From a candidate division TA06 bacterium B3_TA06 (GTDB taxonomy: Bacteria > Hydrothermota > Tepidihabitantia > B3-TA06), in the NCBI GenBank assembly GCA_005223075.1, contig NJBO01000002.1, positions 1,836-65,835 of the forward strand: a stretch of DNA of 64,000 nucleotides. Direction: 5' to 3'. Below are positions 1 through 34,475 of this stretch, piece after piece (position 1 is the stretch's first letter; every line of letters starts with the position of its first letter). Made by a program: the position numbers and the translations under genes. The notes below the pieces were generated by a model. That model made no database searches. It saw nothing but the letters and a program-made list of their open reading frames with translations, and was not told the origin of the DNA.

Positions 1-728
1 ATGGAGAAGAAGCTGGTGCGTTCGGCACCTCCGTTCAGCAAACCCCTGATGGCGGATACATAATCGCTGGGTTTAAGGCAATCCCCGAGCCGCCTGATCA
101 CTGGGTGAAGTATGATTTTTGGCTCCTCAAGACGGATGAGAATGGAGATACTTTGTGGACACGCATCTACGACTGGGAAGAATCGGATCAAGCCCAAAGC
201 CTTGATCAAACAATGGACGGAGGATACATCATTGTCGGGTGGAAAGGTAACGCATCACCAACTGGTCTTGCCTATATGTGGTTGGCTAAAACCGACGAAG
301 CAGGCGATACCCTTTGGACGCGCACCTTTGGGGAGCGCAATGGTTCAGGTCAATGCGTTCATCAGACCCTTGACGGTGGCTACATCATCACCGGGGTGCT
401 GGATGGGAATCTTTGCCTGATCAAGACCGACTCTCTGGGCGATACCACCGAGGTCCCTACGGTTTCCGAGAGCCTACCTCTTGAAACTGAGACCAACTGG
501 CATATCGTTTCCTCCATTGGCCGCAGCATCGTTCTTCAATACAAAGACCTGCCCCAAGGCTTCCACGCATCAGTATTCGACGCCACAGGCCGCAGGGTGG
601 ATGAGATACACTCAGGCCAAGCGTCCGGGATCATCGCCTGGGGCGGAGGATACGAGCCTGGTGTTTACTTCATCAAGGCGATTTCAGATAATCCAAGCAC
701 GACTCGAAAGGTAATTCTAATCCAGTAA
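1..728 (+). CDS. 5'-truncated secreted beta-propeller repeat protein with C-terminal T9SS-type sorting domain. The frame is open from position 3, so the window begins inside the gene.
   Basis: Frame 3 is open from nt 3. It carries repeated 'DGGYII.G...KTDE.GDTLWTR' blades. The C-terminal ~75 aa (HIVSSIGRSIVLQYKDLPQGFHAS.FDATGRRVDEI...GVYFIKA...KVILIQ) match the Por/T9SS CTD pattern seen in the other cargo genes here. Confidence 0.7.
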   Translation, partial: GEEAGAFGTSVQQTPDGGYIIAGFKAIPEPPDHWVKYDFWLLKTDENGDTLWTRIYDWEESDQAQSLDQTMDGGYIIVGWKGNASPTGLAYMWLAKTDEAGDTLWTRTFGERNGSGQCVHQTLDGGYIITGVLDGNLCLIKTDSLGDTTEVPTVSESLPLETETNWHIVSSIGRSIVLQYKDLPQGFHASVFDATGRRVDEIHSGQASGIIAWGGGYEPGVYFIKAISDNPSTTRKVILIQ

Positions 729-894
729 TAGGCGGGCCGACCTGAGGCGAAACGCGCGGTCAAGATCGCGAACGTCGGTCCCTACAGTTTCACTCTGCGA
801 TCTTTTACCCTAAAGGGCACAAGTGTCCGAAGGAGAAAAGAAGCATTTAACGGGGCGCTCACAGGGGACGTCATGGAAAGGTAGAATAGGAGGA

Positions 895-2436
895 ATGATG
901 AAAAGACTATCCGTGATTTTAACTCTCACGGCTGCGATGCTAGGTTTTATTCCTTCACACCTGGCCGCAGCAGACGATGTAGTAGATACCCTGGGGTTCA
1001 TAGTGAAGACTCAAAACGCTGAAGCGCTAGAGGTGCTTGTTGAGGATAAAGGGCTGGAAATCGGCCCGCTGATTACGTATCCGAACCCTTCAGATGAAGT
1101 TCTTGAGGTGTTCGGGTGCTACTTCATCGTGACCATCCCCCAGGAATTACACTCGATTCAGAACAGCATCGTTGATGAGCTTGAAACCCTGCCAGGGGTT
1201 GAGTACGTGGAGCCGAACCTAAGTATACCGGTTGAACTTCATGTTGAGCAAGGAACTATGCAAGAGTCCTTTCAAAACCCATTCAACATGCCAGACACGT
1301 TCGACGACCCTTACACACCGAACGATCCTATGTTCCCGAACCAATACGGCCCACAGATTACCAAGGTAGATTGGGCGTGGAACCTCTCAACCGGCGAGGG
1401 TGTGAAGATAGCCATACTTGATGCCGGTTTCGATGTACATCATGAAGACTTGATTGATAACTTGGATCTAGAGAACGCTTACGACTTTACAGACGACGAT
1501 ACTATCGTTGATGGATTGCAACATGGAACTTGGGTTACAGGAATTGCAGGAGCAAAAATAGACAACGGTATCGGAATAGCCGGTGTTGCAGGTAACTCTT
1601 CTATTCTGCCTTTGCGTGTTATAGGGGGTAGCGGACAGTTGCATCCTTACCTTGTAAAAGCAATTATCTATGCGGCGGATAAAGAGGCAAGGGTGATTAG
1701 TATGAGTATAGGAACCATCGTCCCTTCCCAGACGACCGAGGATGCAATAGATTACGTCTGGGAGCGAGGGGTATTCGTATGTGCCAGCGCCGGCAACTCA
1801 AACAAAGATGAGCTTCCGTATCCCGCGAGCTACGGACACGTAATGTCGGTTGGAGGCACGGATTCGGAAGATGAAAGATGGGATGATGGTGATCATGGTT
1901 CAAATTTCGGATCAAACGTTGATGTCTATGCTCCGGCAGACTCGATCTTTACAACCGATCTGGACGATAGCTATGGATATCCATCATTCCCTTCCGGTAC
2001 TTCCTTTTCAGCTCCTCACGTTGCGGGTTTAGCTGCCTTGATATGGGACGTACATCCTGATTGGACAAACCAGCAGGTCTGGGACAAGATAATTGAAAGT
2101 GCAGACACCATAACCATTGACAAGGGCAAGGTACTGCGCATGAACGCCTGCAAAGCGCTGGATATAGTTCCCGGAATCACCGAACACCCAGTGGCAGAAA
2201 CGGCGGAATGGAAGGTACTCTCCTCGATTGGTCAGCGGATCGTCCTCAAGTACCATGATCTCCCTCAAGGTTTCCACGCCTCAATCTTCGACGCCACAGG
2301 ACGTAAGGTTGACGAGATAGAATCCCCGGCTCAAAAAGGGGTTTTGACTTGGGGAGAAAATCACAGCCCTGGCGTTTACTTCATTGTGCTTGGCGACAAA
2401 GAGGTGTCAGTCCAAAAGGTTATCCTGATAGAGTAA
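895..2436 (+). CDS. S8 subtilisin-family serine protease, secreted, with C-terminal T9SS sorting domain
   Basis: Catalytic triad motifs AILDAGFD (Asp), HGTWVTGIAGA (His) and GTSFSAPHVAGLAAL (Ser). A signal peptide MMKRLSVILTLTAAMLGF follows the AGGAGG ribosome-binding site at 888-893. The C-terminal tail ...GRKVDEIESP...GVYFIVLG...KVILIE is a T9SS-type CTD. Confidence 0.9.
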   Translation: MMKRLSVILTLTAAMLGFIPSHLAAADDVVDTLGFIVKTQNAEALEVLVEDKGLEIGPLITYPNPSDEVLEVFGCYFIVTIPQELHSIQNSIVDELETLPGVEYVEPNLSIPVELHVEQGTMQESFQNPFNMPDTFDDPYTPNDPMFPNQYGPQITKVDWAWNLSTGEGVKIAILDAGFDVHHEDLIDNLDLENAYDFTDDDTIVDGLQHGTWVTGIAGAKIDNGIGIAGVAGNSSILPLRVIGGSGQLHPYLVKAIIYAADKEARVISMSIGTIVPSQTTEDAIDYVWERGVFVCASAGNSNKDELPYPASYGHVMSVGGTDSEDERWDDGDHGSNFGSNVDVYAPADSIFTTDLDDSYGYPSFPSGTSFSAPHVAGLAALIWDVHPDWTNQQVWDKIIESADTITIDKGKVLRMNACKALDIVPGITEHPVAETAEWKVLSSIGQRIVLKYHDLPQGFHASIFDATGRKVDEIESPAQKGVLTWGENHSPGVYFIVLGDKEVSVQKVILIE

Positions 2437-2649
2437 GAGATCAGCGAGCTGTGACAAAAGGGCAGGGGTATCCTTGAGAATCCAGGCACGGGAGTAATTC
2501 CAGGTGTTAAAATATCATTATATTCCCGGAGACAAAAACTGTGAATCAGGATGCCTTAACGGTCTTGGACAGTCTGCATTATACTCTTAATACCCTTGAC
2601 AGAATCTTTTATTGGACTATAATCCGTTACCAACCAAGGAGGAAGAATC

Positions 2650-3324
2650 GTGAAAAAATATCTTATCGCTCTAGCCCTTTTAATCCCCGTAATAGCCATG
2701 GCTGGCGAACTCAACATGGCTGTAACCGACGATTTCGTCAACTCGGTCAAGGCGGTTGAGGAGAATGTTGAGGAAGCCGGAGAGTTGTTGGACAACGCAG
2801 AGGAAACCTTCTACACCCTTGTCGACTTAATAGTAGAACTTCCCGAAATCAGCACTCCTAAAGAAGAAGTAATGGCGGTACTCGATAGCGCCACAAAGAA
2901 AAAGGACATAAAAGCCGCTGAGGAGCTTTACGAGAAGTACCTGGCGGAAACTGCGGCACGTGAAGAAGCATTCCTGGAACTGTGGAACAACAGCGAAACC
3001 AAACAAGGGATCGTAACCTACTTCAACAATCGCAAGGAGATAGCTCTTTCCATCAAGGAAGACGCACAGAAAGCCCTTGAGATAGATATACAGGCCTTCA
3101 AGGACCTCGCTGATCTACCAGAGAAATTCAAGGCTGCCTCAGAGGATATCGCCAACCAGGTCAAAGCAGATCCCACGGCCGCCTTTTCGGCCAAAAAGGT
3201 ACTCTCTGCGATAAAAGAAGCCAATGAATCCCTCAAAGCCACCAAGGAAAAGGCTACGCAACAGAAGGAAACCGCTGGGAAACTTCTGAACTGGCTGAAG
3301 GACCTGGTGAAGACGGAAGAATAG
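2650..3324 (+). CDS. secreted alpha-helical hypothetical protein (signal peptide plus coiled-coil)
   Basis: GTG start with an AGGAGG ribosome-binding site. Signal peptide MKKYLIALALLIPVIAMAG. The sequence is E/K/A-rich and helical, and a rho-independent terminator follows. Confidence 0.65.
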   Translation: MKKYLIALALLIPVIAMAGELNMAVTDDFVNSVKAVEENVEEAGELLDNAEETFYTLVDLIVELPEISTPKEEVMAVLDSATKKKDIKAAEELYEKYLAETAAREEAFLELWNNSETKQGIVTYFNNRKEIALSIKEDAQKALEIDIQAFKDLADLPEKFKAASEDIANQVKADPTAAFSAKKVLSAIKEANESLKATKEKATQQKETAGKLLNWLKDLVKTEE

Positions 3325-3350
3325 GGCCTTATCCGTTGAGAAAATCGAAA

Positions 3351-3380
3351 AGAGCGGGACTTTGGTCCCGCTTCTTCTTT
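3351..3380. terminator. rho-independent terminator (GCGGGAC-TTTG-GTCCCGC plus T-rich tail) between convergent genes
   Basis: Perfect 7-8 bp GC stem followed by TTCTTCTTT. It sits just downstream of the 2650..3324 stop. Confidence 0.6.
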
Positions 3381-3433
3381 AAGGATCTCATTTAAGATCA
3401 CCCCGCAGGGGGGCTATTGCTTGTTTCTAGGGT

Positions 3434-4765
3434 TTATGCGATCAAACCGCGCTCGCGCAGAAGCTTTGCAACCACCGCCTCAAGCTCGGGCAGCACCGCA
3501 TCGTCGAGATCGTAGTAGACCCGGGTTGAAGGCTTGGCGATCTCAATCACCTTCCGCAGATCAATCGGCGTACCGATAACCACCGTATCAGCAGGGACGG
3601 CGTCTATTGATGCCTTCATGTCATGAAGCTGTTCAGGACCGTAACCCAGGGCAGGCAGCAAGGGTGCTGTCTGGTTGTAGCGCTCAATCGTTTCCTTAAT
3701 CCGCCCCTTCGCGTAAGGGATGGGATCAACGATCTCAGCCGCCCCGAACTTCTTGGCGGCAATTGTTCCCGCACCTATCTTCATGCCGCCGTGGGTGAGC
3801 GTGGGGCCGTCCTCTACCACCACAACCCTCTTGCCGCGGATGAGACTCTCGTCCTCAACCTTAACCGGCGAGGCGGACCTGATGATTCTGGCCTTGGGGT
3901 TCAGGCGATTTGCCGCCTCTTCCACTTCCGCAATCTGTTCTGGTGTGGCGGAACCGATCTTGTTTATCAAAATCATATCAGCCATGCGGAAGTTCACCGC
4001 ACCCGGATAGTAGGTCTGCTCGTGACCGGCGCGCAAGGGATCGGCAAGCACGATGGCGAGATCAGGCCGATAGAAGGGGATGTCGTTGTTCCCGCCGTCC
4101 CAGATCACCAGCTGGAACTCCTTCTCGCACTCTGAAAGGATCGCGCCGTAGTCCACCCCAGCAAAAACGGTGCTGCCTGCCCGGATGTGCGGCTCGTACT
4201 CCTCGCGCTCCTCTACGGTGCAGTTGTGGCGGTCCATGTCCTCAATTGTATCAAAGCGCTGCACCGCCTGAGCGGCCAGATCACCGTAAGGCATGGGATG
4301 GCGCACCGCAGCGTAGCGGATCTCGTACTTGACAAGGATTTTGGCGACCGCACGCGAGGTTTGGGACTTGCCCGCACCGGTGCGCACAGCACACACAGAG
4401 ATCACCGGAAGCTTGGATGAGAGCATGGTGCTTTTCGGACCCATAAGCCTGAAGTCTGCACCTGCGGCAAGTACTGTAGATGCTCTATCCATCACATACT
4501 CGTGACTTACGTCGGAATAGGCAAACACAACCTCGTCCACATCATACTTCTTGATTAAATCAACCAACCTCTCCTCCGCCTCTATTCCTATCCCTTCAGG
4601 GTAAAGCGAACCTGCTAAACTCGAAGGATAACGACGGCCCTCGATCTCGGGAATCTGGGTTGCGGTGAACGCCACAACCTCGTAGTTCTCGTTGTTTCTG
4701 TAGCATACATTAAAGTTATGAAAGTCGCGTCCCGCAGCACCCATTATGATAACACGTTTGCGCAT
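3434..4765 (-). CDS. P-loop NTPase family protein (COG2403-like predicted GTPase / cyclic 2,3-diphosphoglycerate-synthetase-like)
   Basis: N-terminal Rossmann-like segment (VIIMGAAGRDF...) followed by a Walker-A-like VRTGAGKSQTS. Length 443 aa. The family name is assigned from memory, not from a search. Confidence 0.55.
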   Translation of the reverse strand: MRKRVIIMGAAGRDFHNFNVCYRNNENYEVVAFTATQIPEIEGRRYPSSLAGSLYPEGIGIEAEERLVDLIKKYDVDEVVFAYSDVSHEYVMDRASTVLAAGADFRLMGPKSTMLSSKLPVISVCAVRTGAGKSQTSRAVAKILVKYEIRYAAVRHPMPYGDLAAQAVQRFDTIEDMDRHNCTVEEREEYEPHIRAGSTVFAGVDYGAILSECEKEFQLVIWDGGNNDIPFYRPDLAIVLADPLRAGHEQTYYPGAVNFRMADMILINKIGSATPEQIAEVEEAANRLNPKARIIRSASPVKVEDESLIRGKRVVVVEDGPTLTHGGMKIGAGTIAAKKFGAAEIVDPIPYAKGRIKETIERYNQTAPLLPALGYGPEQLHDMKASIDAVPADTVVIGTPIDLRKVIEIAKPSTRVYYDLDDAVLPELEAVVAKLLRERGLIA

Positions 4766-4942
4766 GAAAACTCCTTTTTGAAATTCCAGAGATTGCCTGC
4801 TCGGATTCCAAGCATACGGATTAGAACCTGTTTGTCAACTCCTTGAGGAATTGTGGCCGTTTTTCCATTTAAGGACTTGAAAAATTGCCAAAACCGAGTA
4901 AGATTGTTGCAAGGAGCAATTCAAAGCAAAGAGAGGTGGTAA

Positions 4943-6328
4943 ATGGTATTATCGAGCCTTATACTGACATTAGTAGCAGGTGCAGGAAGCGGAGTGAGTT
5001 TCCATACTCAACTGCAGTATACACCTGCCCTACTGACCAAGGGGGAGGATTATGATCGAGACCCTTCCATTGAGGCGGTGATCAATCCCTACGACGCATA
5101 CTACTTCTCTCACAGGGTTTCAGCTAAGGTCGGTCTGGAGGCTTTCGGCGGGTGGGAGCTGCGGGCAATCGGATGTATCTCGCAGTCTATCATACCTCAT
5201 GCGTTTCATGTCGCGAGCTTTGACGATGGAACATACCCGCGGATTCCATACACGCTCTGGAGTTCCCGTGAGGTAAGCGTGGGCGGCGAGCTGGGACACG
5301 CCGTGCGATTCCGTAACGGAAAGGGGGATATTTACCTCGGCCTGGAGAGGGTTTGGACTGAGGTGCACGGCGAAGGGGTATTCTACCTGGATACAATAGT
5401 GGATACCTTCCCGATGTTTACCCACGGCAGCGGCATTCAAGGCCATATAGGCGTAAAGATCCCTCTGGTGACATTTGGTTGCTTTGCTCTTGGGATGAAT
5501 GCCCTGTTAATGGGAGGCAACATCCCTCAGATACCGGACAGCATCCCGGAAGGCTCGGTGTGGACAGGTGCTCACGGCCTTCCCAGGTGGGGATTCGGTG
5601 TGGGCTTAAGCCTTGGTTATGATTCCCGCAAGAATTTGGATTACCTGCCCGATTTAAGATTGAGACCTCATCTCAAGGACTCTTCTCGCCTGGTCCTGAA
5701 ACCGGCAAAGAGATGCTTTCTGCCTCCATGGATCATTCAGGGTGCTGCTTCCTGGGGCTGCGGGTTGGTGGGCGGCTCTCTGGCCAGCCTGGCTTCCCTG
5801 GCCTGGGGAGGAAACGGCATGGGGCTTGGGCTTAATATCTTCTCCTTGTGGACGGGCGACTATCCAGGCCAAAGGATCTCTGTTGCCGCCTGGAGCTACC
5901 TGGGGGTTCCTTGCGGGGCCATGCTGGGAACGGCCCTTGCCAGCAGAAGGGTTAAGCCGGGCGGCGACTGGCGGTGCGTTGCATTAGGAGCTCTAGCAGG
6001 TGACGTTCTCAGCTTTTCCATCGCCCAGGCCTATCTTCTTATCGCCGGCCCCCCTTGGCGCTACAGCCCTGAGGGAGCCCCTCCTCCCACAGGAAGAGGT
6101 AGTTCGACTTTCTACGGGGTGGTCTTGCCTTTGTGTTCTACCCTTCCGGCGATAGGCGCGGTTGTGGGTTATAACCTGAGTGTTCCCAAGGTCGAATCGC
6201 TGGAAGAAGACATGGGTTACCGACCCTCCTGGACCGAGCATTCAAGGGAGAGTTTTGTAAGTGAGTGGAATTCTTCACCTAGCAGCGAACCAACAATGAG
6301 GCTTACTTTACTGAGAGTGAGCTTCTAA
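4943..6328 (+). CDS. hypothetical Gly/Trp-rich putative outer-membrane protein
   Basis: GAGGTG ribosome-binding site 4 nt before the ATG. Hydrophobic N-terminus, many amphipathic beta-like segments, and a C-terminal ...LLRVSF ending in Phe (OMP-like). I cannot assign a family. The antisense ORFs overlapping it look spurious. Confidence 0.5.
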   Translation: MVLSSLILTLVAGAGSGVSFHTQLQYTPALLTKGEDYDRDPSIEAVINPYDAYYFSHRVSAKVGLEAFGGWELRAIGCISQSIIPHAFHVASFDDGTYPRIPYTLWSSREVSVGGELGHAVRFRNGKGDIYLGLERVWTEVHGEGVFYLDTIVDTFPMFTHGSGIQGHIGVKIPLVTFGCFALGMNALLMGGNIPQIPDSIPEGSVWTGAHGLPRWGFGVGLSLGYDSRKNLDYLPDLRLRPHLKDSSRLVLKPAKRCFLPPWIIQGAASWGCGLVGGSLASLASLAWGGNGMGLGLNIFSLWTGDYPGQRISVAAWSYLGVPCGAMLGTALASRRVKPGGDWRCVALGALAGDVLSFSIAQAYLLIAGPPWRYSPEGAPPPTGRGSSTFYGVVLPLCSTLPAIGAVVGYNLSVPKVESLEEDMGYRPSWTEHSRESFVSEWNSSPSSEPTMRLTLLRVSF

Positions 6329-6381
6329 AAACCATCAAAAGTAAGGGGGAAGTGATGCTCACAAAAGGGTGCATCTTGGGT

Positions 6382-6409
6382 TTGACAAGCTGTCAAAAAT
6401 GTGTAGATT
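6382..6409 (+). promoter_or_regulatory. sigma70-like promoter TTGACA-N16-TAGATT upstream of the TolB-like gene
   Basis: Match to the -35/-10 consensus with 16-nt spacing. It lies about 200 nt upstream of the start, so the assignment is tentative. Confidence 0.35.
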
Positions 6410-6618
6410 GTCATAAAGGGACATGACATGAATAGAAAGGTGTATATAGGAAGAGGTCCTCACACTCCCCGTTGTGATCTTTTAGTAGGATATACGTATA
6501 GGTGTATCGTGTTGGTGGGCAGTCCTTTGATAAAGAGTTTAACCCTAACCTGGAGGTGAACGGAACCTAAAACTGCAACTAAAAACCAATGTATAAACAA
6601 GCATGGAGGAGAAACAAA

Positions 6619-7803
6619 ATGTTTAGGAATAAACACCTCACAATCCTGAAGGCGCTTTGCGCCTTCCTCGTGCTCACTTTTTTCGTACCCGCGACACTTT
6701 ATGCCGCCGAAGGCGAGACCTGGATCGTCTTCGAGTGCAACCGACCCAACCCAGATGCGGAAGGCCGCACCTACTGGGATATCTGGAAGCTAGATCCGGA
6801 TGGAGATGGTTTACAATCAGACGATGGTCTCTTTGGTTTTGCATTAACTAATGACCCTAGCAACGAGTGGGATCCCACCTACTCGGTTGAGAATCAGACA
6901 GTGGTCTTCGTTTCTGATAGGAACGGCTGGCCCCATCTTTACAAGGTCAGCATAGACGGTGGATACTGGGAGGGATTTCTATTCGGGCAGTACTGCGCCG
7001 TTGACCCATGTTACAGCTTTGACGGCACCAGGATAGCCTACGCCTCCAACCAGAACGGTAACTGGGATATATACACAATGGATACGGACGGATACAATAA
7101 AACGCAGATTACCACAGACGCGGCGGATGACCGCAGCCCGTGTTTTTCCACTAATGGAAACAAGATATACTTCATCAGCAACCGGGATGCAGGGGCTATA
7201 GGCGACTGGGAGATATACGTGGTGAACAGCAGCGGGGGCACCGCAACCAAGGCGATAGTGAATGCTCAGGGCCAGCCGTTGCTTCTGGATTACACCGAAC
7301 ACGATCCCTGCTGCAGCCCTAATGATCCTGACATCATCGTCTTTGCCACTAACAAAGCCACGACAACTTACACTGAACCGGTGAACCGCATCAACTTCGA
7401 GTTGTTTAAGTATTCAATTTCCGGCAAAACTTTGATCCGCCTCACGGAAAGTTGGAATGATCCGGCTGGAGTATCAAAACAACTTTGGAACAGCTCTATG
7501 CCGTGCTTTTCGCCTGACGGCCAGCGCATCGCCTGGTCGGCTGATAACTGGACGAGACAAGGGTGGCAAGGTAATCTTCCTGAAAACCGTCCTTATAACA
7601 ACAGTTTCTGGAAACCTGATTTTGACCAAGGTTCTATTCACCAGATCTGGACATGCGAACTCGATCATATAAATAATGACCATTACTACTTTCCACCTTC
7701 ATTTTGGGGGTGGGAAAACGGACCTGTCGGCGTTGGATATGGTGATCATAAAGGTCATCAGCACCACAAGCACTACAACCCTTCTTGGGATAACCAACCA
7801 TAG
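6619..7803 (+). CDS. TolB-like PD40/WD40-like beta-propeller periplasmic protein with Trp/His-rich C-terminal tail
   Basis: GGAGGA ribosome-binding site and signal peptide (LTILKALCAFLVLTFFVPATLYA). Repeated TolB-type blades (SPDG.RIA..S.R.G, WDIY). The C-terminus is ...HQHHKHYNPSWDNQP. Confidence 0.8.
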   Translation: MFRNKHLTILKALCAFLVLTFFVPATLYAAEGETWIVFECNRPNPDAEGRTYWDIWKLDPDGDGLQSDDGLFGFALTNDPSNEWDPTYSVENQTVVFVSDRNGWPHLYKVSIDGGYWEGFLFGQYCAVDPCYSFDGTRIAYASNQNGNWDIYTMDTDGYNKTQITTDAADDRSPCFSTNGNKIYFISNRDAGAIGDWEIYVVNSSGGTATKAIVNAQGQPLLLDYTEHDPCCSPNDPDIIVFATNKATTTYTEPVNRINFELFKYSISGKTLIRLTESWNDPAGVSKQLWNSSMPCFSPDGQRIAWSADNWTRQGWQGNLPENRPYNNSFWKPDFDQGSIHQIWTCELDHINNDHYYFPPSFWGWENGPVGVGYGDHKGHQHHKHYNPSWDNQP

Positions 7804-7811
7804 GAGAAGAG

Positions 7812-9101: not shown

Positions 9102-9110
9102 GAGGAGGAT

Positions 9111-9437
9111 ATGCTTTGGAACAGTTCGATGCCGTGCTTTTCGCCTGACGGCCAGCGCATAGCATGGTCGGCTGATAACTGGACAAGACAAGGTTGGCAA
9201 TATGAGAAAAATCCCGATGGTTCCTATCCCAAGAGTTACTGGAAACCTGATGGGGGGCAAGGTTCTGTTCATCAAATCTGGACTCGAAGGCTGGACCAGC
9301 CTGATCACCACTATTGGTTCCCGCCTTCTTACTGGGGATGGAACGACGACGAACAGGAACCATGGCCTTGGGGGCCACCAGGGCCGGGCCATCAGCACCA
9401 CAAACATTACAACCCATCGTGGGATGAGCAGCCATAG
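9111..9437 (+). CDS. small Trp/His-rich protein, a duplicated copy of the C-terminal ~108 aa of the TolB-like protein (gene fragment or stand-alone domain)
   Basis: About 80% amino-acid identity to residues ~300-404 of 6619..7803 (LWNSSMPCFSPDGQRIAWSADNWTRQGWQ...HQHHKHYNPSWD.QP). It has its own GGAGGAGG ribosome-binding site and ATG. Confidence 0.6.
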   Translation: MLWNSSMPCFSPDGQRIAWSADNWTRQGWQYEKNPDGSYPKSYWKPDGGQGSVHQIWTRRLDQPDHHYWFPPSYWGWNDDEQEPWPWGPPGPGHQHHKHYNPSWDEQP

Positions 9438-9443
9438 GAGGAG

Positions 9444-10754: not shown

Positions 10755-10769
10755 TTTAAGGAGGGAAAG

Positions 10770-13787: not shown

Positions 13788-13797
13788 AACTGCTCTA

Positions 13798-18735: not shown

Positions 18736-18739
18736 GTCC

Positions 18740-23875: not shown

Positions 23876-23877
23876 CA

Positions 23878-23962
23878 CGTACCCGTAACACCCCCCGTAC
23901 CCCTTCGGGGCATTCTCATAATTATTCGGAGCTTACGCTCCGCTCACAAGGAAATAACACCC
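23878..23962. repeat. inverted copy of the 18606-18685 repeat segment (includes CCGTAACAC units and a CGGAGC-GTAA-GCTCCG hairpin)
   Basis: The reverse complement is nearly identical to 18606-18685. The two copies flank the crp/fnr-prfA-prmC-nadK-recN block in inverted orientation. Confidence 0.8.
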
Positions 23963-23997
23963 CCCGCAACACATCCCCTGACACCCTCCCGGATGCA

Positions 23998-24558: not shown

Positions 24559-24560
24559 GT

Positions 24561-27206: not shown

Positions 27207-27268
27207 GCATTAACAAGGCTGCCTTGTGATCAGCCATGTTCGCTTTTAGCCGAGATTACGTAAGAACC

Positions 27269-30200
27269 CTAAGGCTGTAACAAAGCGGCCTTGGTTATCC
27301 GCTGGGCCGTAGAAAATTCCTCTGATTCCTCGTCCGTTCGCCGCTCACGCCACCCCAGTGTGTAGATATAAACACCAGGCGCTGGACGGTGACCACTTTC
27401 CGTCAAACCGTCCCAGTGAGCCTCAAAGATGCCGCCGAACTCATAGAAAACCTCGTCTATCAGTGTACGGATGTGCTCGCCGGCTCGGTTGTAGATGCGA
27501 AGCGTCACCAGTCCCGCACGAGGGATGCTGAACGCAAACGTCGTTGAGCCGCTGAACGGGTTCGGGTAGTTGTGGATATCCAATACAGGCTCGAAGCGCG
27601 TCATGATAAGAACGCTGTCGTTCACCAGAGTAGGATCGTCGGTGTAGTAAGTCCGGATCCACACTATCCTGTGTTCGGTTACCGTGGTGTCGAACGCACC
27701 TGCTATACTGCCAAGCTCCTCGTGAGGCCTCACAACCAGACGCGCCACTACCATCTTGGCAGAATCCACAGATCCCAGATCAGGAACGCCGTCATTATCC
27801 TCGTCCAGGAGAGGGGTTCCGTCCTCAAAGCTCAGGGTATGGCTCCAACCCAGATCAGGTGCCGCGTAGCTGCCGATGTCGATAATGTCATACGTGCTGC
27901 CGAGATTGGTTACCCGAAGCAGGTATACCGCCTCCTCGCCAGGACCGATTATCGTGCCCGTGTCCGGCTCGATATCCAGCGCCACTATGTTTCGCGTGCG
28001 TGTTACCACTATCGCGCTGTCGTATACCGTATCGCTGATCGAGGAGCGAGCGTAGACTATGGTTGAATCGAAAAGACCCGGAAGCGCCCAGTAGGGCGGC
28101 GTCACGTCAAGATACAGCATATCAAATCCAGGAACACCCCCGACAAGACCGGCCAAGGTGTCCAGATCAGGGATGTCGTCACCATCGGTGTCCGCAAGAT
28201 CGTTGATCCCGTCCTTGTCAACAAGCCGGTGAACCCAATCCGATTGACCAGGTTCAAAGGTAATGTCCGGAACGTCAGGACCGTTGCCGTAATTGGAAAC
28301 CTTTAAAGGATAGCGAATCGTCTGACCTGAAGGAACCGAATCCAACGTGTCGGGGATGATAAGTAGATCTGGAACAGCGTTAACCGTCACGATCAGAACC
28401 GCGGTGTCGGCAACCAGCTCCACAGGGTAAAGACGCGAGGGGTAGTTCACTGAGGCCCCAGCGAGGTGGATAACAGCGCTGTCACCAGCCATAGCTGTAT
28501 CAGGAACATCAACACGAACCTGGAAGGGAGCCGGTATCTCCTCAGGAAGAACATTCGGGACGTCAGGGTTGCCGTCACCATCACTATCACTAAGACCGAC
28601 CAACTCAACCGGCCACGTAACAGGATCCTTGTTAGAGCTCCAGGTAAGATTGACCGTATCCTCGCGGTAAAGGCTCGTGTTTAGCGCATACACCGAGAAT
28701 ACCGCCGACTCATCAGGATAGGCGGACTCACGCACCGTATCCGGACCTACCTCAATACTCACCTCGAGGATAGTAGTCACAAGAAACGCTGTATCCAGTC
28801 TGGTAGTATCCCGCATGGATACGACGCTGAAGAAACAGGTATCCATAGCTCCGAAAGGCACGGTATCCGAGGGGGTCACGTCGGCTAGCACAAGAACGTT
28901 CCCGCCCTTAGGCAAGGTGTCGGTATCGGGGTTGCCGTCGCCGTCAACGTCAGGCAGGGTGCGGCCCAGCTCGTCGGAAAGGGAGGTGCTGAAGTTTAAA
29001 GAATCGCTGTTCTCTGTGAAGATGTTGATAACGTCCCATATGTTGCCGTTGTTCTCGACGTAGACCTCGTAGGCGCCGTCATCTGTTTGGCTGGTGGAAA
29101 CCAGACATTCGGTATCCTTAAACTGATCCGGGTAGGCGGCAACAGCCGGGTGTATCGCAAACCAGAGAGGCAAGAAGTCTGACCCTTGACGATCAAGGCA
29201 GCTTCCCATAGTCGCCACCCCTTCAGAAGTAGTCACATGGTAGATTGCAACTGCATCGGCATCGTCCAGCGGACAGGAGTAACGGTAGAACTCGCCCCTG
29301 TCAAGGGTTCCCTCGTAGATGGTCGTCTCCTCGTTCCCTCCAGACTTTGGGGTTCTTGTTACCTTTACATCGGTACTGTCGGAGAATGCAATAACGTGAA
29401 GCCGGGAGTAAATAAGCCCAATATCAGACCATGAAACGGAGGCCTGAAGCGGAATATAGAACTCCTTTCCAAGCCCTAAACCGTCGCGGTCAATCCCTCG
29501 AACCATGTAAAAAGCAACGTGGTGTATTCCGAAGCTTGTCCATTCGGTCTGTGAAACAGAGATATCCTTGTCCGCGTGGATGTAAAGCGGCCTGCCCCCC
29601 GTAGGTAATGGAACTGCAAATCCCTTAATCTTGCCTCTCTTCTCACAGAATATCCTTCGAATTGTATCGGCAGGATTATTAAGATCAGTAACCGTTACCC
29701 ATGTTTCGTCTTCCCAGGGAACGAATTGAATATCCTGGGGGGCAGTTCCCCACATATGTTGGTAGGTCATGAAATCCCGGCCAGTGAAAGTTCCGTTGAA
29801 CGCAGGTACGTACATCCCGTTAACGCCGCAGGAGGTCATAGTTGATACAGGACGTGTGGCCTCTACTGAGTAAACTATGGGAGGAACATCTCCCCCCTCA
29901 CGCAAGTAGTACTCGGCACTGTCAAGATCACCCTCCCAGATAACCGTTTGGTTTTCCATATTCCGGACAACCACATGGGTATTATTGTGATAGGCAAAAA
30001 CAGCCAGGATCGCTTCATTAGCTGGGATCCCAGTCGACTTCGGACCTACGGACAACAACTTCGTACTGAGCGGACGACTATTCTGATCCACCGCATACCA
30101 GGTGCCTAACCCCCTCACGAAGGGATCGCCGCTGAGAACCGAGAACTCTTTGCTACCCAGAACCTCATATACTCCCCACGGTATGTCCTTGACAAGGACA

Positions 30201-30535
30201 TATTCTTCGTTCATGAGAACGCCGGACCAAACTGAGTCGCCAGCGTCATTAAGAATCCTACAGTAGTTACTGTCCCCGTAGGAGAATATAACAATATCGC
30301 CGTAGGTGTAGGCAAAGGTAGCAAAGGTATCTTCCTCCTGGGGAATCATCGGAAGATCAAGTTTCCCTACGTAATGGGTTTGCTCCACAGTTCCCTCAAA
30401 TAAAGGTGCTGGTCGGGTAGTATCCCTTTCCACATAGTCTTGCACCAATACATCGCTCGGCTCAACCGCCTGAGCCAGCCCGATTTGCACCCCCCCTAAG
30501 AGCAATATGCTCACTATTACAACAACACGCCGCAT
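27269..30535 (-). CDS. large (1088 aa) secreted multi-domain protein with canonical T9SS CTD (NYPNPF...)
   Basis: Signal peptide. The N-terminal ~500 aa are ~90% identical to 32114..34033, and an internal ~240 aa segment is paralogous to 31359..32087. The C-terminus has the NYPNPFSGSTTFAFSIP...LRIYNRAGEHIRTL...GVYIYTL motif. AGGAGG ribosome-binding site. Confidence 0.85.
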   Translation of the reverse strand: MRRVVVIVSILLLGGVQIGLAQAVEPSDVLVQDYVERDTTRPAPLFEGTVEQTHYVGKLDLPMIPQEEDTFATFAYTYGDIVIFSYGDSNYCRILNDAGDSVWSGVLMNEEYVLVKDIPWGVYEVLGSKEFSVLSGDPFVRGLGTWYAVDQNSRPLSTKLLSVGPKSTGIPANEAILAVFAYHNNTHVVVRNMENQTVIWEGDLDSAEYYLREGGDVPPIVYSVEATRPVSTMTSCGVNGMYVPAFNGTFTGRDFMTYQHMWGTAPQDIQFVPWEDETWVTVTDLNNPADTIRRIFCEKRGKIKGFAVPLPTGGRPLYIHADKDISVSQTEWTSFGIHHVAFYMVRGIDRDGLGLGKEFYIPLQASVSWSDIGLIYSRLHVIAFSDSTDVKVTRTPKSGGNEETTIYEGTLDRGEFYRYSCPLDDADAVAIYHVTTSEGVATMGSCLDRQGSDFLPLWFAIHPAVAAYPDQFKDTECLVSTSQTDDGAYEVYVENNGNIWDVINIFTENSDSLNFSTSLSDELGRTLPDVDGDGNPDTDTLPKGGNVLVLADVTPSDTVPFGAMDTCFFSVVSMRDTTRLDTAFLVTTILEVSIEVGPDTVRESAYPDESAVFSVYALNTSLYREDTVNLTWSSNKDPVTWPVELVGLSDSDGDGNPDVPNVLPEEIPAPFQVRVDVPDTAMAGDSAVIHLAGASVNYPSRLYPVELVADTAVLIVTVNAVPDLLIIPDTLDSVPSGQTIRYPLKVSNYGNGPDVPDITFEPGQSDWVHRLVDKDGINDLADTDGDDIPDLDTLAGLVGGVPGFDMLYLDVTPPYWALPGLFDSTIVYARSSISDTVYDSAIVVTRTRNIVALDIEPDTGTIIGPGEEAVYLLRVTNLGSTYDIIDIGSYAAPDLGWSHTLSFEDGTPLLDEDNDGVPDLGSVDSAKMVVARLVVRPHEELGSIAGAFDTTVTEHRIVWIRTYYTDDPTLVNDSVLIMTRFEPVLDIHNYPNPFSGSTTFAFSIPRAGLVTLRIYNRAGEHIRTLIDEVFYEFGGIFEAHWDGLTESGHRPAPGVYIYTLGWRERRTDEESEEFSTAQRITKAALLQP

Positions 30536-30600
30536 TGCTTCCTCCTAACTAAGGTTTAATTACCATAAGGATACCCCCCCAAAGGGAATTGTCAAGCCCC

Positions 30601-30628
30601 TTGACAGAATTCCAATCAGGCATAGAGT
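30601..30628 (+). promoter_or_regulatory. sigma70-like promoter TTGACA-N16-TAGAGT; the ATG is 6 nt downstream, suggesting a leaderless transcript
   Basis: Consensus -35. The -10 ends 6 nt before the ATG at 30634. Confidence 0.4.
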
Positions 30629-30633
30629 TGGGC

Positions 30634-31362
30634 ATGCCCGCACCCGTAACACCCGTAACACCCGTAACACGCACACCCTTAACTCTCAGGAAGGATCGGG
30701 AAGGAATCCCAAGGATTTGTGTAAAAACCCACACCCTCTCCCCTGCTGACGAGATCGGCGAGGTGGTCGAGCGCTACGCGGCTAGGTATCTAAAGCCGGG
30801 CGACATCGTGGTGCTTGCCGAATCGCCTCTGGCCATCACCCAGGGCAGGGCGATACCAGTAAAGCAGATGCATCCCAGACTTTCGGCAAGGATACTGTGG
30901 CGGTTCGTGCGCAAGGTTCCCTACGGTGTGGGCCTACGCAATCCTTTCTCAATGGAAGCTGCAATTGAAGAGTGTGGTGTGTTACGGGTATGGTTCGCGG
31001 CGATCCTAGGTGGATTCTTGAGGATGCTGGGACGGAGAGGCGATTTCTACAGGATTGCGGGAATCCAGGCGCGGATGATTGATGCGGCAGGAACATCACC
31101 TGTCAAGCCCTACGACGAGTGCGTGCTCAAAGGGCCTAAAGAACCCTACGAGGTGGTCAAGGGATTAAAGAACCGCTTCGGGGTTGAGTTCGCGATAATG
31201 GACATAAACGACATCGGCGGCTCCTGGGCGGTTGCTGCGACTTCGAGGATCAACCGAGCGGCACTTGAGGAGCTGATGCGCGACAACCCCATGGGTCAGG
31301 GCACCCAGCTGACGCCGATTACGATCGTGAGAGCAAGAGGAACCGAGCTGCTCTTAGACTAG
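30634..31362 (+). CDS. CofE-like (F420-0:gamma-glutamyl ligase family) protein whose N-terminus contains (PVT)3 encoded by a CCCGTAACA tandem repeat
   Basis: IPRICVKTHTL.P.DEIGEVVERYAARYLKPGDIVVLAESPLAITQGRAIPV resembles the CofE/F420-ligase N-terminal fold. The family call is from memory. The start is chosen at the first canonical ATG; no other in-frame start exists before the conserved region. Confidence 0.5.
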   Translation: MPAPVTPVTPVTRTPLTLRKDREGIPRICVKTHTLSPADEIGEVVERYAARYLKPGDIVVLAESPLAITQGRAIPVKQMHPRLSARILWRFVRKVPYGVGLRNPFSMEAAIEECGVLRVWFAAILGGFLRMLGRRGDFYRIAGIQARMIDAAGTSPVKPYDECVLKGPKEPYEVVKGLKNRFGVEFAIMDINDIGGSWAVAATSRINRAALEELMRDNPMGQGTQLTPITIVRARGTELLLD

Positions 31363-32087
31363 CGGATAATCACCTTCCTTCGCAGCCTTTGACTTCCTCC
31401 TTCCCGGACAGAAACGAAGTAGACCCCTTGAGACAGATGGGATAGATCGATCTCCGCACGAGGTTCCTCTATGATCTCGGACAGAACCCTGCGGCCAAGA
31501 GCGTCGAAGATGCTAATAGAAACATCATCTCCACTAGTATCACCAAACGATAGGTAAAGTGTGTTACAGGCAAAATTCGAGTGTAGCTCCAAGGCCCCTT
31601 CCTCCTCCAGATGCTCTTCAACAAAAGTCCCACGCACAATCGTAACTACAGTGGCCGAATCGTAAACCGTATCGTTGATCGAGGAGCGAGCGTAGACTAT
31701 GGTTGAATCGAAAGAACCCGGAAGCGCCCAGTAGGGTGGAGTCACGTCAAGATAGAACGTATCAAATCCCGGAACGCCCTCAACAAGACCGGCCAGGGTG
31801 TCCAGATCAGGGATGCCGTCACCATCGGTGTCCGCGAGATCGCTGATGCCGTCCTTCGAAACAAGACGGTGAACCCAATCCGGTTCGCTTGAGGTAAAGG
31901 TGATGTCAGGTACATCGGGATCATCCCCAAAATTGAGAACCTCAAGAGGATAACGAATGGTTTGCCCCGCAGGAACCGAATCCAACGTGTCAGGAACGAT
32001 AAGAAGCCCAGCAACAGGTAATGGCAACGCGTATATTCCGGAAGCCATTACTAATAAGCACACCCCCATCAACACAAAGCGCTTCAT
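31359..32087 (-). CDS. small secreted protein with T9SS CTD, paralogous to an internal domain of 27269..30535
   Basis: Signal peptide and AAGGAGG ribosome-binding site. LLIVPDTLDSVPAGQTIRYPLEVLNFGDDPDVPDITF...TIVYARSSINDTVYDSATVVT matches residues ~690-870 of the 1088-aa protein. It has its own CTD (...ISIFDALGRRVLSE...GVYFVSVREG...RKVIIR). Confidence 0.8.
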   Translation of the reverse strand: MKRFVLMGVCLLVMASGIYALPLPVAGLLIVPDTLDSVPAGQTIRYPLEVLNFGDDPDVPDITFTSSEPDWVHRLVSKDGISDLADTDGDGIPDLDTLAGLVEGVPGFDTFYLDVTPPYWALPGSFDSTIVYARSSINDTVYDSATVVTIVRGTFVEEHLEEEGALELHSNFACNTLYLSFGDTSGDDVSISIFDALGRRVLSEIIEEPRAEIDLSHLSQGVYFVSVREGGSQRLRRKVIIR

Positions 32088-32113
32088 CGCTCCTCCTTTA
32101 TACTCAGAGTTCT

Positions 32114-34033
32114 TTACTTACAAACGACCACCTTACGGGTGATGCGCCCGCTCTGCCCTCTCTTAGCTGAGATAAAGTAAACACCCCGGGGAAAGCCTGA
32201 CACATCTATACTTGCCTGCGATTCCTGGATAGTCCTGGATAAAACCCTGCGGCCTGTTACATCGAATATATCAAGCTGGAGTTCTTCTCTAGCAGGATTC
32301 AAAACGTATACCACATCCTGCCCAAAGGCGAACCTAAGCTCGAAATGAGCCCCCACAAAAGGTTTCTCGCTCACGGAGCCGGGAATAATCCTGGTTATAA
32401 GAAATGCCGTATCACACTTGGTCGTATCACGGGAAGAGACCACTCTGAAGTAACAGGTATCAACAGTCCCAACCGGCACAGTATCCGAAGGGATGACGTC
32501 AACAAGCACAAGGGCGCTTCCGCGTCTAGGCAAGGTATCGGTGTCAGGATTGCCGTCGCCGTCAACGTCAGGCAGTGTGCGGCCCAGCTCGTCGGAAAGT
32601 TCGGTTACAAAATCAGGATCCAGGCTGTTCTCTGTGAAGATGTTGATAATGTCCCATACGTTGCCGTTGTTCTCGACACAGACTTCGTAGCAACCCTGGT
32701 CGGTCTCAGAAACAGGAACCCCGGGGTAAGTCTCTCTAAACTGATCAGGATAGGCGGCAACAGCCGGATGGATCCCAAACCAGAGAGGCAAGAAGTCGGA
32801 GCCCTGGCGATCAAGGCAGCTTCCCATAGTCGCCACCCCTTCAGAAGTAGTCACATGGTAGATTGCAACTGCATCCTCATCGTCCATCGGACAGGTATAA
32901 CGATAGAATTCACCTCTGTCAAGGGTCCCTTCATAGATACCTGTTTCGTCCCCACCGTCTCTTGGAATCCTGGTCACTTTTATATCGGTGTTGTCAGAAA
33001 AAGCTATAACGTGAAGACGAGAATAAACGGGCCCAATAGCAGCCCATGAAACGGAGGCCTGAAGAGGGATATAGAACTCCTTTCCAAGTCCCAAACCATC
33101 GCGGTCAATCCCTCGAACCATGTAAAAAGAAACGTAGTCTGTGCCGAAGCTTATCCATTCGGTTTGGGAAACAGATATGTCCTTGTCCGCGTGGATGTAA
33201 AGTGGCCTGCCCCCCGTAGGTAATGGAACTGCAAATCCCTTAATTTCCCCTCTTTTCTCACAGAATACGTGCCAGATCGTATCTGTCGGATCACCCAGCC
33301 GGGTAACGGTCACCCGTGTTTCGTCTTCCCAGGGAACGAATTGAATATCCTGGGGGGTAGTTCCCCACATATGTTGGTAGGTCATGAAGTCCCGGCCAGT
33401 GAAAGTTCCGTTGAACGCAGGTACGTACATCCCGTTAACGCCGCAGGCGGTCATAGTTGATACAGGACGTGTGGCCTCTACTGAGTAAACTATGGGAGGA
33501 ACATCTCCCCCCTCACTCAAGTAGTACTCGGCACTGTCAAGATCACCCTCCCAGATAACCACCTGGTTTTCCATATTCCGGACAACCACATGGGTATTAT
33601 CATTATAGGCAAAAACAACCAGGATCGCCTCAAGATCTGGGCTAAAAGTTGACTTCGGACCTACGGACAACAACTTCGTACTGAGCGGGCGACTATTCTG
33701 ATCCACCGCATACCAGCAGCCTAACCCTCTACCAAAAGGGTCACCGCTGAGAACCGAGAATTCTTTGCTGCCCAGAACCTCATATACTCCCCACGGTATG
33801 TCCTTGACAAGGACATATTCTTCGTTCATGAGAACGCCGGACCAAACTGAGTCGCCAGCGTCATTAAGAATCTCACAGTAGTTAATGTCTGAGTAAGAAA
33901 ATATCACGATATCCCCAAAGGTATAGGCGTAGGTGGCAAAGGTATCTTCACTTTGAGCGGTATATCCCCATTGGGATACCTGGGGATTTGAAACCATCCC
34001 CAGGAGACTAAAGATGATAAAAAAGCACATCAT
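32114..34033 (-). CDS. secreted protein with T9SS CTD, N-terminal paralog of 27269..30535
   Basis: About 90% amino-acid identity and near-identical DNA stretches (e.g. 29461-29640 vs 33081-33260). It has its own CTD (...LDIFDVTGRRVLSRT...GVYFISAKRG...RKVVVCK). AAGGAGG ribosome-binding site. Confidence 0.85.
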   Translation of the reverse strand: MMCFFIIFSLLGMVSNPQVSQWGYTAQSEDTFATYAYTFGDIVIFSYSDINYCEILNDAGDSVWSGVLMNEEYVLVKDIPWGVYEVLGSKEFSVLSGDPFGRGLGCWYAVDQNSRPLSTKLLSVGPKSTFSPDLEAILVVFAYNDNTHVVVRNMENQVVIWEGDLDSAEYYLSEGGDVPPIVYSVEATRPVSTMTACGVNGMYVPAFNGTFTGRDFMTYQHMWGTTPQDIQFVPWEDETRVTVTRLGDPTDTIWHVFCEKRGEIKGFAVPLPTGGRPLYIHADKDISVSQTEWISFGTDYVSFYMVRGIDRDGLGLGKEFYIPLQASVSWAAIGPVYSRLHVIAFSDNTDIKVTRIPRDGGDETGIYEGTLDRGEFYRYTCPMDDEDAVAIYHVTTSEGVATMGSCLDRQGSDFLPLWFGIHPAVAAYPDQFRETYPGVPVSETDQGCYEVCVENNGNVWDIINIFTENSLDPDFVTELSDELGRTLPDVDGDGNPDTDTLPRRGSALVLVDVIPSDTVPVGTVDTCYFRVVSSRDTTKCDTAFLITRIIPGSVSEKPFVGAHFELRFAFGQDVVYVLNPAREELQLDIFDVTGRRVLSRTIQESQASIDVSGFPRGVYFISAKRGQSGRITRKVVVCK

Positions 34034-34094
34034 CCCTCCTTGGTTTTGTTTATTGAAAATACTACGAGTTAATTGAGGATTGTCAAGCCTTGGA

Positions 34095-34475
34095 CTAGTA
34101 GATTATGACCCTGCGTATGACGCGCTGGCTCTCCACTATCCGGGCGGAGAGGAAGTAAACGCCCGGTTGAAAATGCGAGACGTCAATCAGGGTCCGAGGA
34201 CCGTCAAAAACCTCTTTATAGATACTGCATCCCAGGACGTCGAAAAGCTCCAGGTGAACCTCCCCCCCAAACGAATAGTTGAGCGCCACGAAAAGCACGT
34301 CGTGCGCAGGCTGCGGATAGACCTCCAGGCAATCTGCAAAAGTGGTGTCGCTTCCTTGAACATCTTCGTCAAAGACCTGCTCACTTGCCTCACTAACCCC
34401 AACCCACTCCTCGGAGGTAACCTCCCCTCCATCACCCCCTGAGATGTTAAGCATCGCCAAAAGGATCAAAAATTT
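34095..34475 (-). CDS. minimal secreted protein: signal peptide plus short linker plus T9SS CTD
   Basis: MKFLILLAMLNISGG... then ...LELFDVLGCSIYKEVFDG...GVYFLSARI...RRVIIY. Only ~126 aa. Confidence 0.6.
   Translation of the reverse strand, partial: KFLILLAMLNISGGDGGEVTSEEWVGVSEASEQVFDEDVQGSDTTFADCLEVYPQPAHDVLFVALNYSFGGEVHLELFDVLGCSIYKEVFDGPRTLIDVSHFQPGVYFLSARIVESQRVIRRVIIY

Follow-up and report, generated by a model that had tools for sequence, protein, structure and literature searches.

Type A cargo proteins of Bacteroidota's type IX secretion system (T9SS), such as RgpB and PorZ of Porphyromonas gingivalis and NucA of Flavobacterium johnsoniae, combine a signal peptide and a passenger with a terminal seven-strand sandwich of ~80 residues, the C-terminal domain (CTD). 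Interpain-like C10 enzymes of Bacteroidota are T9SS cargo. Among the proteins of family TIGR04183 that carry Gene Ontology annotation (about 30% of the family), 12% are serine endopeptidases (PMC11205867), and the CTD fold is described in PMC4804311. Here we examine a 64-kb stretch of DNA, referred to as the window, from contig NJBO01000002.1 of an uncultured bacterium deposited as candidate division TA06 bacterium B3_TA06. Genes in this window share with type A cargo the signal peptide, passenger and terminal sandwich, as well as the GxY motif and the terminal K-h-h-h strands, and serine and cysteine peptidase passengers are common to both. We consider it likely that these are ordinary T9SS cargo genes of an uncultured WOR-3/Stahlbacteria lineage, and that their local density reflects neither a dedicated operon nor an imported island.

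Open reading frames (ORFs) were called greedily and their C-termini were inspected, with the region 1–34529 compared to the remaining 29.5 kb of the window. Fourteen ORFs within 1–34529 finish in a homologous tail of ~75–100 residues, a GVYF-type CTD. They lie on the forward strand at 3–728, 823–2436, 7812–9101, 9444–10754, 10770–13787, 13880–15499, 15659–16354, 16462–18048, 18124–18360 and 25560–27206, and on the reverse strand at 27269–30535, 31359–32087, 32114–34033 and 34095–34529. No complete ORF in the remaining 29.5 kb has such a tail (14/26 genes versus 0/34). The tails follow the pattern h-x-h-(F/Y)D-x-x-G-(R/K)-x-V ... G(V/I)Y(F/I) ... (K/R)-h-h-h-h-stop and end 0–3 residues before the stop codon in all 14 cases. 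Motif D (GxY) and motif E (K-h-h-h) are present in every tail, with the G and the Y invariant. A motif B-like PxP region (YPNPF or YPQPA) is seen in only two, those of 27269 and 34095.

A scan with the NCBIfam model for the T9SS type A sorting domain (TIGR04183, cut-off 23 bits) placed six tails above the cut-off (3–728, 26.5 bits; 10770, 26.7; 15659, 39.7; 31359, 42.9; 32114, 38.9; 34095, 29.5) and four below it (823, 22.8; 13880, 21.2; 16462, 19.2; 18124, 18.2), and gave no match for the tails of 7812, 9444, 25560 and 27269. The gathering score of Pfam PF18962 was reached by four tails. The tail of the C10 protease passes FlgD_ig, and several tails score as well on that model. In the NCBIfam scan, the tail of 9444–10754 resembles that of a T9SS-dependent M6-like protein, and the tail of 27269 aligns with the PorU model at its C-terminal end (E 4e-10). 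A leave-one-out hidden Markov model (HMM) connects 13 of the 14 tails as one homologous family (E 2e-22 for 3–728, 2e-18 for 7812, 3e-10 for 9444, 2e-6 for 25560); for the four tails lacking a TIGR04183 match, three are recovered at E ≤ 2e-6 and one at 0.11. Across 80 recN neighbourhoods (1.14 Mb), the tail HMM matched solely in WOR-3 and other FCB-type loci, with no matches in the Bacillota, Acidobacteriota and Armatimonadota loci among them. The preliminary description of this DNA had counted 14 tailed ORFs in the first 34.5 kb and proposed an HMM search of them; that count is confirmed, with both alignment and HMM showing the tails to be homologous.

Five tails (3–728, 823, 7812, 13880 and 18124), 35–54% identical to one another, form subfamily A. 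They share extra blocks (SSIG..IVL.Y...PQGFHAS.FD..GRKVDE...TWG...PGVYFI) and have no PxP region. Subfamily A is the tail type that drops below the curated cut-offs, although 3–728 does reach the TIGR04183 score given above. A profile search with a subfamily-A tail returned only short ORFs without signal peptides; this probably reflects the bias of a word-index prefilter and says little about the spread of the subfamily among full-length proteins. One tail, that of 7812–9101, which has no curated match, was modelled with AlphaFold2 from the 14-tail alignment. The model is a seven-strand sandwich with a predicted local distance difference test score (pLDDT) of 82.7. Among 350,542 PDB chains, its top two Foldseek matches are PorZ (5m11) and the CTD of NucA (8glk_D); the latter is the substrate CTD in complex with the type 9 translocon (TMt 0.72, root-mean-square deviation 2.7 Å over 75 columns). 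At the other end of the proteins, all 12 complete cargo ORFs have, among their first ~35 residues, an 11-mer with a Kyte-Doolittle value of at least 2.08. The hydrophobic N-terminus is absent from the 78-residue ORF 18124–18360, and 3–728 is 5'-truncated.

The RecN protein of the window is 97% identical to that of Ca. Stahlbacteria E44_bin36 and 76–77% identical to those of other Stahlbacteria/WOR-3 metagenome-assembled genomes (MAGs), and on this sequence comparison the source lineage is placed with Ca. Stahlbacteria/WOR-3. The earlier assignment to an uncultured FCB-group bacterium is supported in so far as the lineage lies near FCB. The 639-residue cargo product is identical to CEE36_01660 of B3_TA06, which is encoded on a contig of 265.5 kb; the TA06 label of the GenBank record looks outdated given these RecN identities. 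Members of Stahlbacteria are described as fermenters (PMC5569505). For comparison we used contigs from relatives: L001 is conspecific (95% nucleotide identity), L002 and L003 are 80–86% identical, L084 is 90% identical, L083 is a JGI contig at 86–91% identity, L086 is another Stahlbacteria contig, and L081 is a distant WOR-3 MAG (GCA_016934635.1). NCBI automated annotation already names proteins of relatives 'T9SS type A sorting domain-containing protein [Candidatus Stahlbacteria bacterium]'.

The cargo genes are arranged in four clusters on both strands (1–2436, 6589–18360, 25560–30535 and 31359–34529). Clusters 1 and 2 are separated by two non-cargo genes and a 461-residue ORF (2650–6328), clusters 2 and 3 by a 6.5-kb housekeeping block, and clusters 3 and 4 by an F420-ligase-like gene. 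The housekeeping block (18740–25190, forward strand) encodes Crp-like, PrfA, PrmC, NAD kinase, RecN, PgsA-like and phosphoesterase proteins, with prfA, prmC and recN above NCBIfam cut-offs. Cargo is thus not contiguous over the ~34 kb, since non-cargo genes intervene. The earlier proposal of a dedicated secretome locus is not supported, with four clusters split by housekeeping genes and with genes duplicated, gained or lost piecemeal among relatives.

One such case is a conserved 9-kb beta-propeller cassette (6589–15499) that is missing from the nearest relatives. By blastn, L001 aligns to 2419–4857 and then to 15421–23956, and L002 and L003 do likewise. Therefore, the 10.5 kb at 4857–15421 (variable slot 1) are missing from the three nearest relatives. 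At this slot, L001 and L002 carry a small gene for a signal peptide, body and subfamily-A CTD (CTD-A), a paralog of 15659–16354, and L003 carries a small gene for a protein like an outer membrane protein together with a 70-bp element equal to 6269–6338 of the window. Relative to L001 and L002, orthology resumes within the CTD-A coding sequence of 13880–15499, and one slot breakpoint maps to the conserved FD..GR.V motif of CTD-coding DNA. L001 also carries an internally deleted CTD.

All cassette genes lie on the forward strand. The first (6589–7803) encodes a PD40/TolB-like propeller (PD40 E 6e-19) with a signal peptide, no CTD and the terminal motif HQHHKHYNPSWD; its L081 ortholog is 66% identical and has the same C-terminal motif. 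It is followed by a BNR/Ycf48-like propeller with a subfamily-A CTD (7812–9101; PSII_BNR, 27.6 bits), the 3' end of a second PD40 gene (9111–9437), a BNR/Ycf48-like paralog with a different CTD type (9444–10754; PSII_BNR, 39.2 bits), a 1005-residue cargo protein (10770–13787) and, as last gene, an SBBP/delta-60 propeller with CarboxypepD_reg and a subfamily-A CTD (13880–15499). A 1631-bp tandem duplication (7483–9113 and 9114–10754) gave the two BNR genes and left the PD40 remnant, where repeats D13 and D20 are 93% and 78% identical to 7483–7652. In L081 the gene order is the same (PD40, BNR with CTD-A, PD40 fragment, BNR with the other CTD, a 1046-residue protein, SBBP), at 46–70% identity gene by gene. 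The L081 ortholog of 9444–10754 is 70% identical with the same CTD type, and the 238-residue PD40 fragment of L081 has 77% amino acid identity to the remnant at 9111–9437. Judged by this shared order, the genes inserted at slot 1 are an old unit. L083 has the last two cassette genes followed by different neighbours, with an IS30-type helix-turn-helix fragment ~1.6 kb downstream of the cassette.

The 1005-residue protein has only two word-sharing homologs among 5.8e9 proteins; it is nearly an orphan over its N-terminal ~550 residues and ends in an FlgD_ig-like CTD. Its residues ~580–900 form a module that exhaustive HMMER searching found to be common to 224 cluster representatives, including C25 and S8 peptidases with CTDs. 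Sequence searches of the PDB with this protein and with the 1088-residue protein described below returned nothing.

Several further observations were made at slot 1. PD40/TolB-like proteins paired with BNR cargo (6589–7803 and 9111–9437; L081 5408–6649 and 7958–8674) have no CTD; their conserved terminal motif, (G)HQHHKHYNPSWD, is rich in His and may be a metal site, and the gaps of 3–8 bp from PD40 to BNR genes suggest translational coupling. The 461-residue ORF upstream of the cassette (4943–6328, forward strand) has an N-terminal hydrophobic segment, no CTD and no Pfam or NCBIfam match. Its last 60 nucleotides overlap the 70-bp element 6269–6338, which is 94% conserved in L003, just 3' of an unrelated small gene. 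We also considered 4857–15421 as a classical genomic island or integrative element and rejected this, as neither the window nor the relatives contain a tRNA and its GC content is 47–50%, against 46–57% for the window; the cassette genes scanned showed no integrase domain.

A second variable slot lies in the paralog cluster at 27269–34529. The 1088-residue cargo protein (27269–30535, reverse strand) has a beta-sandwich N-domain (residues 66–598), three repeats that carry DxDGDGxPD motifs and a YPNPF-containing CTD. It is 83% identical over 533 residues to the 639-residue cargo protein (32114–34033, reverse strand; CEE36_01660), an N-domain paralog with a type A CTD whose distal half is mosaic, and its residues 721–849 are 80% identical over 129 residues to the 242-residue protein (31359–32087, reverse strand), which has a single repeat and a type A CTD. 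The 639- and 242-residue proteins each have their own signal peptide and CTD. The N-domain family has expanded in WOR-3/TA06 MAGs to several paralogs in each genome, and paralogs of these families are found on other contigs of the same genome (CEE36_03030 and CEE36_06440). The 639-residue protein was modelled by AlphaFold2 as all-beta arrays of beta-sandwiches (pLDDT 85.5) with no specific structural match, and our best guess is that the N-domain has a binding or structural role at the surface. We considered the 1088-residue protein as a PorU sortase and rejected it, since it has no Peptidase_C25 match and just its last ~90 residues match NF033707 (37.9 bits, where at least 420 bits are needed).

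Slot 2, between the 639-residue gene and the F420-ligase-like gene, was seen in three states. It is empty in L084, where a 637-residue gene adjoins the F420-ligase-like gene; it holds a 493-residue beta-helix CTD gene in L088 and L089; and it holds the 242-residue gene in the window. The CTD of the L084 637-residue protein is chimeric, with a proximal half resembling the CTD of the window's 639-residue protein (66%), a distal half resembling that of the 242-residue protein (73%), and a switch point at ..IFD..GRRV... In L088, by contrast, the 631-residue protein has a distal CTD half that looks like the CTD encoded by the small gene beside it. Chimeric CTDs of this kind are the pattern expected from crossover between CTD-coding repeats, which would correspond to Campbell-type insertion or to deletion between tandem CTDs, in either direction. 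It should also be noted that the contigs of L002, L003 and L004, from independent MAGs, all end at the equivalent of ~27200–27440, the start of the 1088-residue gene, which fits assembly breaks from the 78–93% identical paralog pair 27269–30535 and 31359–34033.

Beside this slot, 34095–34478 (reverse strand) encodes a 127-residue protein made up of a signal peptide, ~35 acidic residues and a CTD that scores 29.5 bits with TIGR04183 and 36.3 bits with PF18962. Within its last 80 residues, the proximal half is 100% identical to L084 and 97% to L088, and the distal half 93% and 88%, respectively. At the nucleotide level the gene is 87% identical to L088, compared to 77% for its flanks, and it is better conserved than neighbouring cargo genes. 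Orthologs are found at L084 9544–9939 and L088 5799–6185. Since the tails of neighbouring genes are less conserved than its own, the gene is probably functional. This protein fits the preliminary description of very small proteins that are little more than a signal peptide plus CTD. The 231- and 242-residue proteins do not, having bodies of ~125–130 residues, and 18124–18360 is a remnant (see below).

HMM scores, the predicted fold and the architecture of a signal peptide, an unrelated body and a terminal CTD together support the assignment of the tails as T9SS type A-like CTDs. Several points weigh against it. Only six of the 14 tails pass the curated NCBIfam cut-off, and only four the Pfam one. 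The Foldseek E-values are weak (about 0.009), as expected of so small an Ig-like sandwich, and signal peptides were called by a hydrophobicity heuristic alone. No T9SS core gene (SprA, PorV, PorU, GldK/L/M/N, PorP/T) was found in the 64-kb window. None was found in about 250 kb of WOR-3 neighbourhoods either, where most ORFs were inspected only by eye, a search that is uninformative because the sample is small. Our literature search found no paper pairing WOR-3 or TA06 with T9SS; the open-access papers searched cover the metabolism of the phylum and never mention secretion systems. The missing core genes and the silence of the literature, together with the eight tails below the TIGR04183 cut-off, the lack of PxP 'motif B' in subfamily A and the equally good FlgD_ig scores of several tails, would also suit generic C-terminal Ig-like (FlgD_ig-type) domains, or the signals of another sorting system of WOR-3. 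We regard this as unlikely, as the tails are strictly terminal on unrelated bodies with signal peptides, form one homologous family with conserved GxY and K-hhh, include six that pass the curated cut-off, and, for the one tail modelled, have T9SS CTDs as the best structural matches, one of them within the translocon.

A single dedicated secretome island, co-inherited and either horizontally acquired or co-regulated, would account for the 14/26 versus 0/34 distribution, and 6589–15499 does act as a transferable cassette. However, housekeeping genes kept in synteny across the lineage sit inside the supposed island, cargo lies on both strands, and conservation of clusters 3 and 4 extends to relatives without the cassette of cluster 2. 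There is no tRNA or integrase at the borders, GC content is 46–57% throughout the window, and CEE36_03030 and CEE36_06440 lie elsewhere in the genome, so that an island is improbable. Density and strain differences could, alternatively, be artefacts of MAG assembly or binning caused by repeated CTD-coding DNA. The contigs of relatives do break at repeats (L002–L004 at ~27.2–27.4 kb, L001 at inverted repeat I1), and L001 holds the internally deleted CTD. Nevertheless, the cassette order is repeated in independent NCBI, Logan and JGI assemblies (L081, L082 and L083), the slot 2 state is repeated in two (L088 and L089), and all ORFs are intact across the junctions, leaving very little room for such an artefact.

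Our favoured reading remains ordinary cargo genes of the lineage, whose density would result from duplication of genes, in tandem or in part, and from genes being gained or lost at slots. CTD-coding DNA, mainly the conserved FD..GR.V stretch, appears to serve as the crossover homology at these slots. Cargo would be exported by Sec to the periplasm, where the CTD would be recognised by an SprA/PorV-type outer-membrane translocon; a PorU-type sortase would then remove the CTD, and the passenger would be released or fixed to the cell surface. A fermentative sediment bacterium would thereby gain proteolysis outside the cell and surface proteins that bind polymers. The tails and their fold, the heuristic signal peptides, the active sites of the proteases, the paralogy and the presence or absence of genes among relatives are seen in the data; dependence on T9SS, what becomes of the cargo, and turnover by recombination are inferred. 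The recombination step draws on two slots and on a comparison of MAG assemblies in which repeats could cause errors, and this may count against it. A bolder and more tentative suggestion, which we think has perhaps one chance in three of being right, is that secretion-signal DNA doubles as a portable recombination site, with whole signal peptide-passenger-CTD genes and the 9-kb cassette inserted, deleted and exchanged via the FD..GR.V crossover. If so, 'cargo slots' would diversify the surface proteome between strains, and the CTD remnants without signal peptides and the conserved gene for a signal peptide plus CTD would be by-products or donors.

The passengers include a set of proteases. The S8 subtilase is encoded by the ORF from 823, with a likely start (MMKRL) at 895, to 2436 on the forward strand. 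It is thermitase-like, with a signal peptide and a subfamily-A CTD (Peptidase_S8 E 6e-46). Its Asp, His and Ser motifs (AILDAGFD, HGTWVTGIAG and SGTSFSAPHVAG) align with those of AK.1 protease (1dbi, E 8e-47). The streptopain-like C10 protein (16462–18048, forward strand) matches Peptidase_C10 (E 2e-32), the propeptide model Inhibitor_I69 (33 bits, cut-off 25) and FlgD_ig (31.4 bits). GCVATAMSQI and GHAIVCDG in this protein align with the equivalent motifs of streptopain (SpeB), and we take their GC(VATA) and GHA to hold the catalytic Cys and His. Both proteases look catalytically intact by their motifs. A second S8 subtilase (62908–63999, forward strand) is truncated at its 3' end by the end of the window (Peptidase_S8 E 9e-8 on the partial product), as the preliminary description had it. 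Its S8, C10, FG-GAP and two Ycf48/BNR-like bodies are also upheld by Pfam, with the catalytic residues of the S8 and C10 proteases in place.

Downstream of the C10 gene, 18124–18360 (forward strand; CEE36_01595) encodes an orphan subfamily-A CTD of 78 residues. It has no signal peptide and its tail is truncated; therefore, on sequence, it is a pseudogene remnant, a decayed CTD. A remnant is found at the same place 3' of the C10 gene in L001, L002 and L003, with different decay in each. Comparable CTD-A ORFs without signal peptides occur in other Stahlbacteria MAGs, for example 3' of an S8 gene in L086. There, at 1722–3651, the gene for a 531-residue S8 peptidase is followed 40 bp on by a 97-residue CTD-A ORF without a signal peptide, the 'protease plus detached CTD' arrangement that the C10 gene also forms with its remnant in the window.

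Among the remaining cargo genes, 3–728 (forward strand) is 5'-truncated and encodes a delta-60/SBBP-like body with a subfamily-A CTD. The 231-residue protein (15659–16354, forward strand) has a signal peptide, a body of ~125 residues and a type A CTD (PF18962, 29.4 bits), and is conserved in L001–L003. An FG-GAP/VCBS-type repeat protein with a divergent CTD (25560–27206, forward strand; FG-GAP_3 E 3e-32) is conserved in L002–L006. Most of the cargo bodies had been described as lacking a recognisable function. This was too strong, since most can be recognised as beta-propeller or beta-sandwich binding modules.

The second half of the window is occupied by housekeeping genes (lipB, lipA, V-ATPase subunits, cyclophilins, fabF, electron transfer flavoprotein genes, gcvPB) and an IS30-type element. 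ORF 40070–40795 there was considered as a PorV/PorQ-like barrel, as was ORF 4943–6328, and both were rejected as neither has a family match. The IS30-type element (36359–38494; transposase 37188–38123, HTH_38 and rve) has an inverted partial copy of its end 20 kb away (58314–58498). The segment is absent from the syntenic L088 region and is therefore a recent insertion. A BamB/PQQ-like beta-propeller lipoprotein (43409–44506) is built from seven DNA repeats of 117–120 nucleotides that are still 63–75% identical. An Rfam scan of the window returned nothing.

Several short repeats were also noted. The decamer GTGTTACGGG occurs in 12 copies, with 0.11 expected, in short tandem arrays with 9–10 bp spacing (18581–18607, 23882–23891, 30643–30670, 30979–30988, 39968–39977, 44945–44954 and 57623–57682). 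The placed arrays are intergenic or at gene starts, with examples upstream of a coaE-like gene and between the divergent 1088-residue gene and the one next to it. In L001–L003, frameshifts or deletions in the decayed CTDs coincide with related copies. These arrays may be regulator-binding sites or slippage-prone repeats. An inverted repeat of 69 nucleotides (18605–18673 and 23894–23962, 99% complementary) surrounds the 5.2-kb crp-prfA-prmC-nadK-recN block. The segment could be invertible, or the arms could represent an intergenic element present in several copies; exactly at the right arm (I1), the contig of conspecific L001 stops. GC-rich hairpins resembling repetitive extragenic palindromes (GGGCCGACCTTCAGGTCGGCCC and relatives, often beside CGTAGGGG) are found at 36272–36761, 41016–41813, 44698–45018, 52817–52846 and 58476–58538. 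The copies inspected are intergenic and lie in the second half of the window.

Taken together, these data extend the catalogue of T9SS-type cargo to WOR-3/Stahlbacteria and leave the understanding of type IX secretion itself unchanged. They indicate that these sediment fermenters invest in secreted proteases and in beta-propeller or Ig-like proteins at the surface. Curated CTD models overlook a tail variant specific to the lineage, and therefore secretome counts for candidate phyla are probably underestimates. The variable slots offer a concrete, testable case in which secretion-signal repeats may drive strain-level turnover of surface proteins.

Compared with the cargo of Bacteroidota, the genes of this window differ in their WOR-3/Stahlbacteria host and in having five tails that form a lineage-specific subfamily A without PxP, with the consensus W-x-h-h-S-S-I-G ... 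PQGFHAS-h-FD-x-x-GRKVDE ... TWG ... PGVYFI. The C10 protein shares motifs and a propeptide with streptopain and interpain A (C10 with Spi-type I69) but is only ~20–25% identical to them, and differs in its FlgD_ig-like CTD and in the decayed second CTD downstream. The S8 protein has the full Asp-His-Ser triad and Asn oxyanion motif of thermitase and subtilisin, to which it adds an N-terminal extension of ~140 residues and a CTD. In P. gingivalis, recombination is known among repeated segments that code for C-terminal adhesin regions or CTDs in gingipain and hemagglutinin genes, and polymorphic toxin loci swap C-terminal cassettes. Here, as there, repeated C-terminal coding DNA goes with mosaic genes and with gene gain or loss. 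The difference is that, in the locus described here, the shared segment appears to be the secretion signal itself, and the units that move would be whole genes of signal peptide, body and CTD.

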